Positions 2,906 to 51,807 of a stretch of 64,000 nt of DNA are shown here, in pieces. Numbering within the stretch: the stretch's first letter is position 1; every line of letters starts with the position of its first letter. The DNA is from Escherichia coli (GTDB taxonomy: Bacteria > Pseudomonadota > Gammaproteobacteria > Enterobacterales > Enterobacteriaceae): the NCBI RefSeq assembly GCF_003334255.1, contig NZ_QOWU01000002.1. The stretch is one strand, 5' to 3'. The notes beneath the pieces were generated by a model that did not search any database, was not told the origin of the DNA, and was given only the letters and a program-made list of their open reading frames with translations. A program made the translations under genes and the position numbers.

Positions 2906-4213
<1,308 letters not shown>

Positions 4214-4461
4214 TCAAAAAATCACAGTGCTCGGTCAACTCTTACCCCGCAAGCACAGGTTGTTGGCTTCGCGGAACCGGGATGTTCTTATAATCAATCA
4301 CATTCCCTGTTACCAGAATCATCCCGAAAGCATTCAAATAGGACGCGGCATTATAGCGGCATCACTTTTATGAGTCGAGAACGGTTATTGCGCGCTGTCG
4401 CGTATTTTTTCACAATTCCCGGGCAATTTTCGTCTGAATGCTGGGCAAAAAGCGCAAAATC

Positions 4462-5169: not shown

Positions 5170-5748
5170 ATGTTCAAAAAAATCCTCTTCCCGTTAGTTG
5201 CTCTGTTTATGCTTGCAGGATGCGCAAAACCGCCAACAACTATTGAAGTTTCCCCGACGATTACACTGCCACAGCAGGATCCAAGCCTGATGGGCGTCAC
5301 CGTAAGCATTAATGGTGCCGATCAGCGTACCGATCAGGCGCTGGCAAAAGTCACCCGCGATAATCAAATCGTTACCCTGACCGCCTCCCGCGATCTGCGT
5401 TTCCTGCTGCAAGAAGTGCTGGAAAAACAGATGACCGCGCGTGGTTACATGGTTGGTCCGAATGGCCCGGTTAATCTGCAAATCATCGTTAGCCAACTGT
5501 ATGCTGACGTGTCCCAGGGCAACGTGCGCTACAACATCGCGACCAAAGCGGATATCGCCATCATCGCTACCGCGCAGAATGGCAACAAAATGACCAAAAA
5601 CTATCGTGCCAGCTACAACGTTGAAGGTGCGTTCCAGGCCTCCAACAAAAATATCGCCGATGCGGTTAACAGTGTGCTGACCGATACCATCGCTGATATG
5701 TCTCAGGACACCAGCATCCACGAATTCATCAAGCAGAACGCGCGTTAA
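5170..5748 (+). CDS. yajG: Lipoprotein YajG
   Basis: Track ORF 5011-5748 trimmed to ATG giving MFKKILFPLVALFMLAGC (signal peptide plus lipobox LAGC); 192 aa. Confidence 0.9.
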   Translation: MFKKILFPLVALFMLAGCAKPPTTIEVSPTITLPQQDPSLMGVTVSINGADQRTDQALAKVTRDNQIVTLTASRDLRFLLQEVLEKQMTARGYMVGPNGPVNLQIIVSQLYADVSQGNVRYNIATKADIAIIATAQNGNKMTKNYRASYNVEGAFQASNKNIADAVNSVLTDTIADMSQDTSIHEFIKQNAR

Positions 5749-5791
5749 TTTCTGCCCTCTGGCCCGGTGCAAGCCGGGCCTGTAGACGCCC

Positions 5792-7267
5792 ATGTCCAGT
5801 CAATATTTACGTATTTTTCAACAGCCGCGTTCAGCCATATTGCTGATCCTGGGTTTTGCTTCCGGGCTACCGCTCGCCCTGACATCCGGTACCTTACAGG
5901 CCTGGATGACGGTCGAGAATATTGATCTCAAAACCATTGGTTTCTTCTCTCTGGTAGGCCAGGCTTACGTTTTTAAATTCCTCTGGTCACCGCTGATGGA
6001 CCGCTACACGCCTCCATTTTTTGGGCGGCGACGCGGTTGGCTGCTCGCCACGCAAATCCTGTTATTAGTCGCCATTGCGGCGATGGGTTTTCTCGAACCA
6101 GGCACCCAACTCCGCTGGATGGCGGCGCTGGCGGTGGTGATCGCTTTTTGCTCTGCCTCCCAGGATATTGTCTTCGATGCGTGGAAAACCGATGTGCTCC
6201 CGGCAGAAGAACGTGGTGCGGGCGCGGCAATCAGCGTTCTGGGTTACCGTTTAGGGATGCTGGTTTCCGGCGGCCTAGCCCTGTGGCTGGCAGATAAATG
6301 GCTGGGCTGGCAGGGCATGTACTGGTTGATGGCGGCGCTGTTGATCCCCTGTATTATCGCGACGTTGCTTGCACCAGAACCGACCGACACCATTCCTGTG
6401 CCAAAAACGCTGGAACAAGCGGTTGTTGCACCTCTGCGAGATTTCTTTGGTCGCAATAATGCCTGGCTTATTTTGCTTCTTATCGTGCTGTATAAGCTGG
6501 GCGACGCATTCGCCATGAGCCTGACAACCACGTTTTTGATTCGCGGCGTCGGGTTTGATGCGGGTGAAGTAGGCGTGGTTAACAAAACGCTTGGCTTACT
6601 AGCGACCATTGTTGGCGCATTGTACGGTGGGATTTTGATGCAGCGCCTGTCACTGTTCCGGGCACTGCTGATTTTCGGCATTTTACAAGGTGCGTCTAAC
6701 GCCGGTTACTGGCTGCTGTCGATTACTGATAAGCATCTCTACAGCATGGGCGCAGCCGTCTTTTTCGAAAACCTCTGTGGCGGGATGGGCACATCAGCCT
6801 TTGTCGCGCTGTTAATGACGCTATGTAATAAGTCATTTTCCGCTACTCAATTTGCCCTGCTCTCAGCGCTTTCTGCTGTAGGGCGAGTTTATGTCGGCCC
6901 CGTGGCGGGTTGGTTTGTTGAAGCACACGGCTGGTCGACATTCTATCTATTCTCCGTCGCCGCTGCCGTACCAGGGCTTATTTTGCTGCTGGTTTGCCGC
7001 CAGACGCTTGAATATACACGAGTAAATGACAACTTTATCTCCCGTACCGCATATCCGGCAGGTTATGCCTTTGCCATGTGGACACTGGCGGCGGGCGTCA
7101 GCCTGTTGGCCGTGTGGTTACTGCTATTGACGATGGACGCGCTGGATTTGACGCACTTCTCTTTCCTGCCTGCTCTGCTGGAAGTCGGGGTTTTAGTCGC
7201 CCTTTCTGGCGTCGTGCTTGGTGGTTTGCTGGATTATCTGGCGCTACGAAAAACGCATCTGACGTAA
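5792..7267 (+). CDS. ampG: Anhydromuropeptide permease AmpG (MFS)
   Basis: 491-aa track ORF, multi-pass hydrophobic MFS-like protein beginning MSSQYLRIFQQPRSAILLILGFASGLPLAL. Confidence 0.95.
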   Translation: MSSQYLRIFQQPRSAILLILGFASGLPLALTSGTLQAWMTVENIDLKTIGFFSLVGQAYVFKFLWSPLMDRYTPPFFGRRRGWLLATQILLLVAIAAMGFLEPGTQLRWMAALAVVIAFCSASQDIVFDAWKTDVLPAEERGAGAAISVLGYRLGMLVSGGLALWLADKWLGWQGMYWLMAALLIPCIIATLLAPEPTDTIPVPKTLEQAVVAPLRDFFGRNNAWLILLLIVLYKLGDAFAMSLTTTFLIRGVGFDAGEVGVVNKTLGLLATIVGALYGGILMQRLSLFRALLIFGILQGASNAGYWLLSITDKHLYSMGAAVFFENLCGGMGTSAFVALLMTLCNKSFSATQFALLSALSAVGRVYVGPVAGWFVEAHGWSTFYLFSVAAAVPGLILLLVCRQTLEYTRVNDNFISRTAYPAGYAFAMWTLAAGVSLLAVWLLLLTMDALDLTHFSFLPALLEVGVLVALSGVVLGGLLDYLALRKTHLT

Positions 7268-48068: not shown

Positions 48069-48160
48069 GCCGGATGCGGCGTGAACGCCTTATCCGCCCT
48101 ACGCGGTTCTGGCACATTTTGCAGGCCTGATAAGACGCGGCAAGCGTCGCATCAGGCATG
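48069..48160. repeat. REP/BIME palindromic units between convergent araJ and mak
   Basis: GCCGGATGCGGCGTGAACGCCTTATCCGCCCTAC and inverted GCAGGCCTGATAAGACGCGGCAAGCGTCGCATCAGGCATG. Confidence 0.7.
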
Positions 48161-48182: not shown

Positions 48183-49091
48183 TTACTCTTGTGGCCATAA
48201 CCACGCAGCGCCGCGTACGCCGCTGGAATCACCGTGCTTCGCCTTACGCACCGGCGTTTCACATTCGCCGCCGAAGACAAATTGTTTAATCAACTGCCCA
48301 ACCGTTTGATATAAACGGTCTACATTGCTCATCCCGCCCCCCAGGACAATCACATCCGGATCGAGAATATTCACGACATGTGCCAGCGATTTTGCCAGCC
48401 GCAGCTCGTAGCGACGCAATGCCAGTTCCGCTACCGGATCGCTTTCTTCAACCAGGCGGATAATTTCACTGCCTTTCAGCGCATGTCCGCTCAAACGACG
48501 ATAATCCATCGCGAATCCCGTGCCCGAAATAAAGGTTTCAATACAACCTTGTTTACCGCAATAACAAGGGACTTCCTCGCGATAACGCAGTTCGTCTTCG
48601 TCCATCCACGGTAGCGGATTGTGTCCCCACTCACCTGCCGTGCCATTGCCGCCGATATGCGCCCGCCCATTGAATGCCACGCCCGCGCCGCATCCCGTGC
48701 CGATAATCACGGCAAATACCGTCTGCGCTCCCGCTGCCGCGCCATCTACTGCTTCTGAAACCGCCAGACAGTTAGCGTCATTTGCCAGCCGCACTTCCCG
48801 CTGCAACCTCGCGCTTAAGTCTTTATCGAATGGCTGACCGTTGAGCCAGGTTGAATTGGCATTCTTCACCACACCGGTGTAAGGCGAAATTGAGCCAGGA
48901 ATGCCCATACCTACCGTTCCGCGCTGCCCCGTCGCCTGCTCCGCCATATCAACCAACGTGGCGATCGTTTCAATAGTCTGCCGGTAATCATCACGCGGCG
49001 TGGGCAGACGATGGCGGTACAACTGCTCCCCTGCATCGCCCAGTGCAATCACTTCAGTTTTGGTGCCGCCTAAATCGATACCTATACGCAC
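48183..49091 (-). CDS. mak: Fructokinase / manno(fructo)kinase Mak (ROK family)
   Basis: Track ORF 48183-49229 trimmed by 46 codons to a GTG start giving (M)[22 protein letters not shown]; ROK zinc motif CYCGKQGC; 302 aa. Confidence 0.9.
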
Positions 49092-49215
49092 GGTACTCTC
49101 CTTATTTTTTTCAATATCAATAGCGTAGAGACGGACAACCGGATTGGCAATGCAAGGCCGCCGACAATTCGTTATCATGCCCGCTAAATTTAACGACAAG
49201 GCCGTGGAAATTATC

Positions 49216-50127
49216 ATGCTGTGGTTCAAAAATTTAATGGTTTACCGTCTTAGCCGCGAGATTTCGCTGCGTGCAGAAGAGATGGAAAAACAGCTAGCCT
49301 CGATGGCATTTACCCCATGCGGCAGCCAGGACATGGCGAAGATGGGCTGGGTTCCTCCGATGGGATCGCACAGCGATGCGTTAACGCACGTTGCCAATGG
49401 TCAAATTGTTATCTGCGCGCGCAAAGAAGAAAAAATCCTCCCGTCTCCGGTGATTAAACAGGCGCTGGAAGCGAAAATCGCCAAACTGGAAGCGGAACAG
49501 GCGCGTAAGCTGAAGAAAACCGAAAAAGATTCGCTGAAAGACGAAGTGCTGCACTCTCTGCTGCCGCGTGCTTTCAGCCGTTTTAGCCAGACAATGATGT
49601 GGATCGACACGGTTAACGGTTTGATTATGGTGGACTGCGCCAGTGCCAAAAAAGCGGAAGATACGCTGGCATTACTGCGTAAAAGCCTGGGGTCGTTACC
49701 GGTTGTACCATTGAGCATGGAAAACCCGATTGAACTGACGCTGACCGAATGGGTTCGCTCCGGTAGTGCGGCACAGGGCTTCCAGCTGCTTGATGAAGCC
49801 GAGCTGAAATCGTTGCTGGAAGATGGCGGCGTGATCCGCGCGAAGAAACAAGATCTGACCAGCGAAGAGATCACCAATCACATTGAAGCCGGAAAAGTGG
49901 TGACTAAACTGGCGCTCGACTGGCAGCAGCGCATTCAGTTTGTGATGTGCGACGATGGTTCGCTCAAGCGTCTGAAGTTCTGCGACGAGCTGCGCGATCA
50001 AAACGAAGATATCGACCGTGAAGATTTCGCCCAGCGTTTTGATGCCGATTTCATCCTGATGACTGGTGAACTGGCAGCGTTAATTCAAAACCTGATTGAA
50101 GGATTAGGTGGCGAAGCACAACGTTAA
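49216..50127 (+). CDS. rdgC: Recombination-associated protein RdgC
   Basis: Track ORF 49144-50127 trimmed to ATG giving [18 protein letters not shown]; 303 aa. Confidence 0.94.
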
Positions 50128-50145
50128 TTGCTGATTTTCCTTTAA

Positions 50146-50183
50146 TGCCGGATGCGACGCCTGCCGCGTCTTATCCGGCGTAC
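50146..50183. repeat. REP palindromic unit downstream of rdgC
   Basis: TGCCGGATGCGACGCCTGCCGCGTCTTATCCGGCGTAC. Confidence 0.6.
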
Positions 50184-50284
50184 GAAGCCACACCAGGCAT
50201 ATAATTATTCGCTACGGCGAGCAATAATTTTTAGCGCAGCAATATTATGCGTTTTACGCTGTAACTTGCTCCATGGACGTTGTG

Positions 50285-50566
50285 TCATTGTTTTTCCTCA
50301 AGCCGGTGACGCGCTTCACTGCGAATTTTCCGCGTTGCCCCGGTTTTCACTAAATCACGTAACAGCGAAAGATCGGGTTGTTCGACAAATAAGAGTAATG
50401 ATGGATCCTCTTTTAACCACGCCGTTTTCACATCGGCAGCCAGCTGTGGATTATTAATAGCCAGCGACCGATCCTGAGGCTCAGTCAATGTCGTTAACAA
50501 CAACGCCGGGGTATGTGCGTTGCGCAATGCCGTTTGGCGTAAATGATCATTGCGACTTTGCAGCAA
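50285..50566 (-). CDS. Hypothetical small protein (93 codons, TTG-initiated in the track); this locus holds the poorly characterised ykiA in K-12 but identity is not verified
   Basis: Only sizeable ORF between rdgC and ppnP on this strand; translation MLQSRNDHLRQTALRNAHTPALLLTTLTEPQDRSLAINN...; no motif I recognise; the alternative + strand ORF starts inside a REP palindrome. Confidence 0.35.
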   Translation of the reverse strand: MLQSRNDHLRQTALRNAHTPALLLTTLTEPQDRSLAINNPQLAADVKTAWLKEDPSLLLFVEQPDLSLLRDLVKTGATRKIRSEARHRLEEKQ

Positions 50567-50773
50567 TGCACGCCACCATTCATCATCTGATTTATCTTTT
50601 ATCGTAGCCAGTTCCGCAACAATATCTGGAGATCTTCACTGATATTTATATCAACCTTGATAAATTATGAATATATCGGAAATTGAAAAAATCGCAGCAA
50701 AGGAAATATTATTATGGGCTAAAGAAAGGATATTTCAGAAAAATGCCCTCCCGTTCAAGGGGAAGGCGAGGAA

Positions 50774-51058
50774 TTACAGATAGCGGCACAGATAAGAGGT
50801 GGGTTCGGCAACTTGCAGATGAAACTCACTGTGACCGGGAACATTAAACACCGAACCGGCTTCATACACCTGCCAGTCGGTCGCGTCAGGCAGTAACACA
50901 TTCAGCGCGCCACTGATTACCGTCATCTCTTCCGGCTCAGCGGTGCTGAAGGTGTATTCGCCTTCAACCATAACACCCACGCTGGCGCGACCAGTGCTGC
51001 TGCTGGAAAAGCCGATTGATTTCACTTTGCCGGAAAAGTACTCATTACTTTGAAGCAT
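50774..51058 (-). CDS. ppnP: Pyrimidine/purine nucleoside phosphorylase PpnP (YaiE)
   Basis: 94-aa track [33 protein letters not shown]. Confidence 0.95.
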
Positions 51059-51129
51059 AAACTGGCCCTGTTTGGTAGTTGAACATCTACTTCACTATAG
51101 GGGCCAGAGGCGCTGGCTGTCACGCAAAA

Positions 51130-51807
51130 TTACACCAGTAATTCCGCAGCCAGCCGTGCAATCAATACGTTAGACAGCAAGACAGGAACATCGAGCTGTT
51201 TTTGCAGTAAATCGCGATGACGTTGGTGAAATCCTAAACAATCCAGCATGATGACATCAGCCCCTTTTGCCAGTAATTCTTTCCCGGCATCAATGATTTT
51301 TTGTTCTGAATCATGAATGGGGTTACCCAATGAAAATACCGGCGATTTCTGCAAAATTTGCCATTTTTGCGCCTGAACGGGCAGCATCTCCTCAACCGGA
51401 ACGATAACCCCCACCTGATGATCTTCAACAATAGAGGAAACCAGTGGAGGCAATATTCGCGACGGCTCAAGAAAGATCGTATTACGCGCAGTCATACTAC
51501 TAATGTTTGCTGTACTCATTAATAAAATGACGTCATAACCCTGATTATCGAGCACTTCAACCACACCTTGCAGGTCACGCTCCACTTTGCGACGCGAAAC
51601 ATGGGCCAGCTGGTTGTCATTTAATAATGTGAGAATGGTGTCTTCGCCTGCTTCTGGCGCGTACTCCGCCATCACTTCTTCACGACTTAACTTCCCCAGC
51701 AGGCTATGATGGGAAATATTATCTTCGTCAATGTATTCCGTCAGGAGCGGCAAAACTTCCTGCATAGGTACAATGCCGATGGTCAGGATCGCCAACGACG
51801 CACTCAT
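51130..51807 (-). CDS. aroM: Protein AroM
   Basis: 225-aa track [33 protein letters not shown]; downstream of aroL-yaiA as in the aroL-yaiA-aroM operon. Confidence 0.95.

Follow-up and report, generated by a model that had tools for sequence, protein, structure and literature searches.

The interval between rdgC and ppnP in the window (the whole 64,000-nucleotide stretch of Escherichia coli DNA analyzed here) is very likely a non-functional wreck, left by a two-gene operon that was acquired horizontally; the wreck is still transcribed, and one small protein, YkiD, is still made from it. The operon, in which a gene for a 759-aa exported protein would have been translationally coupled to a gene for a 151-aa protein of the SF0329 family, would have been gained by an Escherichia ancestor at the ppnP-rdgC junction. 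Deletions would then have removed the large gene from its start codon through about codon 355, its codons from about 362 to 646 between 12-nt direct repeats, and 124 codons of the SF0329 gene, in frame, between 10-nt direct repeats. The survivors would be a spacer with a promoter and the ppnP terminator, 113 start-less codons (ykiA), a 27-codon stub (ykiD) and a REP unit. Because the promoter and the ykiD ribosome-binding site would have survived, the wreck would be transcribed when BglJ-RcsB is active and YkiD would still be produced. We regard this output as residual expression, not retained function, and the products of the interval are presumably without function.

The feature as such is ordinary and has been annotated before, as the ykiA pseudogene, ykiD and a published promoter. 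What is new is the exact deletion anatomy, the derivation of YkiD from SF0329, the census of alleles, and the case for acquisition and parallel decay; the MG1655 annotation, PMC6001520 and the available text of PMC3950696 give neither the three deletion junctions nor the YkiD-SF0329 derivation nor an allele census.

Deletion anatomy of the rdgC-ppnP interval

Across the interval, 701 bp are 100% identical to E. coli K-12 strains, and the locus has the same sequence and the same position as ykiA/ykiD of K-12 MG1655, in which the two lie at 408609-408950 and 408947-409030, respectively, between ppnP and rdgC. A preceding sequence-only reading had stated that K-12 holds ykiA at this position, and MG1655 indeed carries ykiA (b0392), annotated as a pseudogene. 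The 93-codon TTG-initiated frame listed on the minus strand in that reading is present (Table 1). It had been described as lacking a recognizable motif, but the Pfam DUF2773 profile (PF10971) matches it with E = 4.5e-46, remnant residues 33-113 aligning with all 81 model positions (1-81), and the neighboring ykiD (27 codons) had been overlooked. RefSeq labels the remnant as a DUF2773 pseudogene, 'incomplete; missing N-terminus'. At the rdgC side, the mechanical list of open reading frames over-extends the gene (49144-49216): the longest frame begins at TTG 49144 (327 aa), and the annotated ATG gives 303 aa.

Table 1 Features of the interval and its flanks in window coordinates
Feature	Position	Strand	Description
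rdgC	49216-50127	+	Flanks the interval; annotated start ATG 49216
REP unit	50146-50183	none	Separates rdgC and ykiD, whose 3' ends converge
ykiD (b4732)	50205-50288	-	27 aa; annotated in RefSeq; in-frame deletion derivative of SF0329; its ATG overlaps the ykiA TGA (ATGA)
Deletion junction 1	50257-50266	none	Surviving copy of the 10-nt repeat CGCYGTAACT that flanks the lost 372 bp of SF0329
ykiA pseudogene (b0392)	50285-50626	-	Last 113 codons and stop of the 759-aa gene; start codon gone
93-codon TTG frame	50285-50566	-	Part of the ykiA remnant downstream of its first in-frame TTG
Putative Shine-Dalgarno sequence GAGGA	50295-50299	-	6 nt upstream of the ykiD ATG, inside the last ykiA codons
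Deletion junction 2	50615-50626	-	12-nt direct repeat CGCAAMAATATC; about 850 bp lost between the copies
18-nt island encoding SPDIVA	50615-50632	-	Mid-gene piece (O157 L004 4253-4270) bounded by junctions 2 and 3
Deletion junction 3	50632	-	1-nt overlap; about 1,070 bp lost from the island through the ATG
AT-rich spacer	50633-50773	-	About 35% GC; ancestral ppnP-cassette intergenic region, complete to 2 nt before the lost ATG
Intrinsic-terminator-like hairpin of ppnP	50739-50767	-	GCCTTCCCCTTGAACGGGAGGGC then ATTTTTCT; from a terminator scan; 6 nt past the ppnP stop
ppnP	50774-51058	-	Flanks the interval on the other side

The corresponding locus of O157:H7 Sakai (L004) reveals what the interval once contained. 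It is orthologous to the window, with the same spacer, REP unit and ATGA-coupled pair, but in O157 the genes are intact: the ppnP-rdgC gap holds ECs_0442 (759 aa; L004 3059-5338), a DUF2773 domain-containing exported protein, and ECs_0443 (149 aa), of the SF0329 family. In blastn comparison, the window matches this locus in collinear blocks (49001-50266 = L004 1402-2668; 50257-50626 = 3031-3400; 50615-50632 = 4253-4270; 50632-51192 = 5340-5900), which map three deletion junctions, two of them on direct repeats of 10-12 nt. In total, 1,939 bp are gone from the large gene and 372 bp from the small one, and the retained pieces are 95-99% nucleotide-identical to O157 (95.7-95.9% for the ykiA remnant against L004 3031-3400). 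At junction 1, the blastn segments overlap by 10 nt and the repeat stands at both ends of the segment in O157; slippage or illegitimate recombination at the repeats is the presumed mechanism of deletion. Junctions 2 and 3 are common to all remnant alleles aligned, and this shared upstream junction points to a single origin of the large-gene deletions. Since the 372-bp deletion is in frame, YkiD corresponds to residues 1-11 plus 136-151 of SF0329, as in the 151-aa allele of strain AR Bank #0349; relative to intact 151-aa alleles, ykiD thus arose by an internal deletion of 124 codons.

The suggestion that the interval might be a decayed remnant of acquired DNA is borne out on this evidence. The frame represents the final 15% of a 759-aa gene, of which O157:H7 carries an intact copy at this site, and has lost the start codon and signal peptide. 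The ATG and codons 1-646 are missing except for the 6-codon island, and the complete 759-aa gene is found between ppnP and rdgC not only in O157:H7 but also in E. whittamii, E. sp. E4930 and E. sp. E1V33, as in a unitary pseudogene. Of the full-length architecture typical of such DUF2773 proteins (signal peptide, beta-helix and long LRV/HEAT solenoid, 750-800 aa in all), the window encodes only the C-terminal 113 residues, that is, the last ~3 helical repeats.

The opposite polarity, according to which the K-12 state is ancestral, the long O157 genes resulted from insertion or gene extension, and the interval is a spacer with chance reading frames, can be virtually dismissed. The short form does predominate by a wide margin in E. 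coli, which speaks for this alternative. However, the remnant aligns in frame and in order with three distinct stretches from within the long gene, and the direct repeats occur at either end in the long form but a single time in the short one, a signature of deletion. Furthermore, E. whittamii, two further cryptic-clade genomes and E. albertii have intact or independently truncated copies at this site, and the long gene has full-length relatives in other bacteria (25-49% identity, aligned end to end) and a dN/dS of 0.12. Junction anatomy and outgroups together refute an ancestral K-12 state.

Probable acquisition, parallel decay and relaxed constraint

The junction comparison across enterobacteria proposed in the sequence-only reading recovered intact, truncated, IS1-replaced and empty forms. 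In E. whittamii, E. sp. E4930 and E. sp. E1V33, the large gene (72-73% amino acid identity) lies between ppnP and rdgC, and after it comes an in-frame SF0329 stub of 20 codons, MR[LS]RRKTHNIAALKII[AI]RRSE. In E. albertii, ATG-AAT-AGG-TAA and roughly 29 codons from the end of the large gene remain, together with an intact SF0329 gene, and E. sp. MOD1-EC7003 combines an intact SF0329 gene with the ykiA remnant. The cassette decayed independently in E. albertii, E. coli and the cryptic clades. Two enterobacterial genomes from outside Escherichia have a ppnP-rdgC gap of 18-68 bp that holds no trace of the cassette. The composition is atypical as well: GC3 is 0.42-0.46 in the remnant and 0.40-0.43 in the intact genes (overall GC of the intact cassette genes, 0.42-0.44), compared with 0.51-0.68 in the long reading frames of the window. 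The empty outgroup junctions, the atypical composition and the independent decay collectively indicate that the cassette was acquired in an Escherichia ancestor and that either gene then decayed repeatedly in a lineage-specific manner. The intact large gene is highly divergent between O157 and the cryptic clades (L019, L023, L024), with dS of about 1.3 compared with 0.25 for rdgC and 0.7 for ppnP, despite its dN/dS of 0.12; this divergence may stem from old allelic lineages, recombination or weak codon bias.

Within E. coli, the decayed form predominates. Of 5,426 complete genomes, 447 (8%) have the 1,939 bp that the large gene of the window is missing and 921 (17%) the lost SF0329 segment (362 bp); 444 contain at least 80% of the whole module, and about 83% of the genomes lack both segments, like the window. 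Further disabling lesions segregate among the remnants. Four of the ten alleles that we compared for selection (93-100% identity, including ST131 and O111 strains) have a 3-nt deletion and one has an internal stop, and natural isolates carry IS1 inside the remnant (H1/H12), a deletion removing ykiA, or IS1 in place of the whole interval.

Constraint on the remnant is relaxed. Over its 113 codons, comparison of these ten alleles, a small sample, gives a mean pS of 0.064, a pN of 0.035 and a dN/dS of 0.54; in the same strains, at similar pS (about 0.06), dN/dS is 0.03 for rdgC, 0 for ppnP and 0.10 for aroM, and the remnant reaches about 17 times the pN of rdgC. In intact genes (O157 against cryptic clades), dN/dS is 0.19-0.24 over these 113 codons and 0.12 over the whole gene. 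As dN/dS is low in the intact genes and higher in the remnant, the gene appears to have been constrained while intact and to be relaxed now, with the proviso that the comparison of 0.54 with 0.19-0.24 for intact genes and 0-0.10 for neighbors is based on a small sample and carries no phylogenetic correction. Neither strong purifying selection on the frame nor homology to a characterized family, the two observations named beforehand as arguing against decay, was found, DUF2773 not being a characterized family.

It should be noted that some observations count against decay as the full account: a dN/dS of 0.54 is below 1 and hence compatible with some residual constraint, and about 83% of E. coli genomes have not purged the K-12-type remnant, whose promoter is conserved. 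Substitutions dating from the time of the intact gene, or low power (10 alleles, 113 codons), could equally produce a value below 1. The same ratio could be taken to mean that ykiA is a functional helical-repeat protein of 93-113 aa, translated from TTG 50566 or a nearby non-canonical start under the control of BglJ-RcsB. The frame is open in nine of the ten alleles, the promoter is active and regulated and an older annotation gave a 113-aa protein (both according to the available part of PMC3950696, the latter in its Table 1), and the retained segment is predicted to form well-folded helical repeats (pLDDT at least 90) in the model of the full-length protein. Nevertheless, we find this most improbable: the ykiA remnant contains no in-frame ATG or GTG before TTG 50566 and no clear Shine-Dalgarno sequence precedes the latter; with 646 N-terminal residues and the export signal gone, any product would be in the wrong compartment; the excess of pN over rdgC, the codon indel, internal stop, IS1 insertion and complete deletion in natural isolates all speak against it, and both RefSeq and the MG1655 annotation treat ykiA as a pseudogene.

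Expression signals and the origin of YkiD

The AT-rich block (about 50580-50770) that had drawn attention at the outset has a GC content of 35.1%, compared with 51.6% for the whole window. The mapped junctions show that the deletions left 50633-50773, the ancestral spacer preceding the large gene, untouched: this stretch is collinear with L004 5340-5481 and aligns base for base in intact, remnant and cryptic-clade alleles up to ...GTGAAGAT, beyond which intact alleles continue with TATGAAT... and remnant alleles with CTCCAGATATT... The second possibility raised in the sequence-only reading, that of a regulatory spacer, therefore holds alongside the first, and both halves of its either/or are supported: the block separates ppnP from the cassette and contains a terminator-like hairpin as well as the ykiA promoter (as described in the available part of PMC3950696) and 5' UTR.

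According to the accessible text of Salscheider et al. (PMC3950696), BglJ activates a lacZ fusion driven by the ykiA upstream region and requires RcsB to do so, 5'-RACE located the transcription start, activation is lost when a box centered 79 bp upstream of the start site is mutated, and the BglJ-RcsB site scores low against the consensus. Inspection of the minus strand suggests, purely as a conjecture, CTGAAA (50738-50733) and CATAAT (50716-50711), with a 16-nt gap, as a candidate promoter, and CATAAT at 50669-50664 as an alternative candidate -10 element. Another K-12 locus activated by the BglJ-RcsB heteromer, molR (yehH), is given in Table 1 of that paper, as far as available, as 'disrupted in K12', like ykiA, and its function is likewise unassigned; as far as tested, the coding sequences of ykiA and the other BglJ-RcsB-activated loci are unrelated. 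The hairpin past the ppnP stop codon, with an 8-bp stem of 6 GC pairs followed by ATTTTTCT, has the GC-rich stem and T-run expected of an intrinsic terminator and probably functions as such; it is invariant in nine aligned alleles, and its T-run TTTTCTGA also fits the wwTTCykA core quoted for BglJ-RcsB boxes. On the plus strand, the spacer contains a 38-codon ATG frame (50667-50783), antisense into ppnP, and a sigma-70-like 10/12 match (TTGAAA-18-TATTAT, 50683-50712) pointing into ppnP antisense, both of which are probably due to chance in AT-rich DNA.

At the other end of the wreck, YkiD is produced: the epitope-tagged protein was detected by immunoblot in rich medium (PMC6001520, VanOrsdel et al., Table 1). 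The 27-aa peptide gave no match to the NCBIfam SF0329 profile, so that YkiD is derived from the SF0329 family (PF25753 / NF049912) but is not a member of it. The production of YkiD raises the alternative that the remnant has been exapted, with the micro-protein, composed of the N- and C-terminal helices of SF0329, or its SF0329-derived C-terminal peptide (KTHNIAALKIIARRSE) alone being under selection together with the conserved promoter and regulated by BglJ-RcsB. Besides expression in rich medium, this alternative draws on the retention of what looks like a dedicated GAGGA-N6-ATG start and on the independent in-frame deletions in E. coli (residues 1-11 plus 136-151) and the cryptic clades (M+RLRRKTHNIAALKIIARRSE), which left the start context and the C-terminal peptide alike in both lineages; this coincidence is also a point against the decay reading. 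Consistently, K-12 and E. whittamii differ over 17 YkiD codons by 6 synonymous and 0 non-synonymous changes. However, intact SF0329 alleles show the same synonymous-only pattern, and selection on intact SF0329 before the deletions therefore explains it equally well, and two deletions would both be in frame by chance in about 1 case in 9. Moreover, the five distinct E. coli YkiD alleles differ by four amino acid changes (R11H, T13K, K20R and R25C) and one earlier stop against 3 synonymous changes, in some strains IS1 replaces the whole remnant, and the 27-aa peptide, as noted, has no match to its parent profile. We thus consider exaptation unlikely, although somewhat less so than a functional ykiA, and favor residual expression from a decayed operon.

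The REP unit reported in the sequence-only reading is genuine. The core pattern GATGCGRCG-N(3-14)-CGYCTTATC matches 50151-50175 and two other sites in the window, three matches compared with 0 expected from 100 shuffles; the unit folds into a hairpin of -29.8 kcal/mol (z = -4.4), partially matches the REP-derived Rfam family naRNA4, and conforms to the imperfect palindromic consensus GCCGGATG...CTTATCCGGC, outside genes. A search of the interval against Rfam for structured RNA returned nothing beyond this partial REP/naRNA4 match. The unit is kept in all E. coli and cryptic-clade alleles examined. Two more REP units form an inverted, BIME-like pair at 48073-48153, directly downstream of mak.

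The intact gene pair and its relatives

The intact 149-aa SF0329 protein of O157 scores 93.7 bits against an NCBIfam cutoff of 60 (Pfam E = 4.8e-22). Its gene (L004 2613-3062, compared with L002 1606-2061) has an extra A in an A-run near the 3' end, by which the C-terminus ...ALKIIARRSE (151 aa) becomes ...ALKNYCPP (149 aa); the conserved SF0329 C-terminus has thus been altered in the O157 lineage. The 759-aa protein is predicted to consist of an N-terminal signal peptide, a bactofilin-like beta-helix and an LRV/HEAT alpha-solenoid, and the SF0329 protein is predicted to lack a signal peptide. The likeness of the large protein to LRV/HEAT alpha-solenoids and bactofilin-type beta-helices is at the level of the fold only, at 9-13% identity, and bactofilin filaments are cytoplasmic, whereas the large protein carries a signal peptide. 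Sequence searches of solved PDB structures gave nothing significant for either intact protein, and a literature search with the locus tags ECs_0442/ECs_0443 and b0392 found nothing relevant on the intact genes. A metagenome-derived genome (L022 2581-7307) encodes, in tandem, two proteins of 764 and 768 aa that are distantly related to the large protein.

Homologs of SF0329 are 56-68% identical across phyla, as in Leminorella grimontii (L006), Paenibacillus elgii (L007) and Bradymonadia (L008). They lie amid runs of small unannotated genes, with WGR+DUF4240, SUKH-3 and DUF2314 among the neighbors, and one adjoins a TerB/BrxC/helicase cluster. These neighborhoods resemble immunity-gene or defense-island settings, a resemblance to which no test gave support. 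As a defense system, the pair found no match in PADLOC for either intact protein; as phage cargo, neither protein matched PHROGs and SF0329 had no phage matches; and as plasmid cargo, matches were limited to 2 plasmid records, including a 1.2-Mb "plasmid". An obligate pair of the toxin-immunity type, considered because SF0329 homologs neighbor small genes, WGR/DUF4240 or SUKH-3, was rejected as well: relatives of the large protein stand alone, in variable contexts, the cryptic clades keep the large gene without SF0329, and the large protein has a signal peptide that SF0329 lacks.

The DUF2773 profile (81 positions) scores better on the K-12 fragment (4.5e-46) than on the intact 759-aa protein (1.5e-39), where its match is confined to the final 81 residues of an uninterrupted alpha-solenoid. 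The domain therefore appears to be delimited by the pseudogene ORF and not by a true domain boundary.

Decay of the operon accounts for the AT-rich and weakly coding appearance of the interval. That Pfam DUF2773 is in effect defined by a pseudogene fragment of a far larger protein is a warning, and the finding that the validated small protein YkiD is an in-frame stub of a broken 151-aa gene calls for caution with small-protein catalogs. The locus provides a fully mapped case of stepwise gene decay by short-repeat deletions, and decay ran a parallel, independent course in E. albertii, E. coli and the cryptic clades. As a target for follow-up, the intact O157 pair, an exported beta-helix/LRV-solenoid protein with an SF0329 partner, would be more interesting than the remnant in the window.
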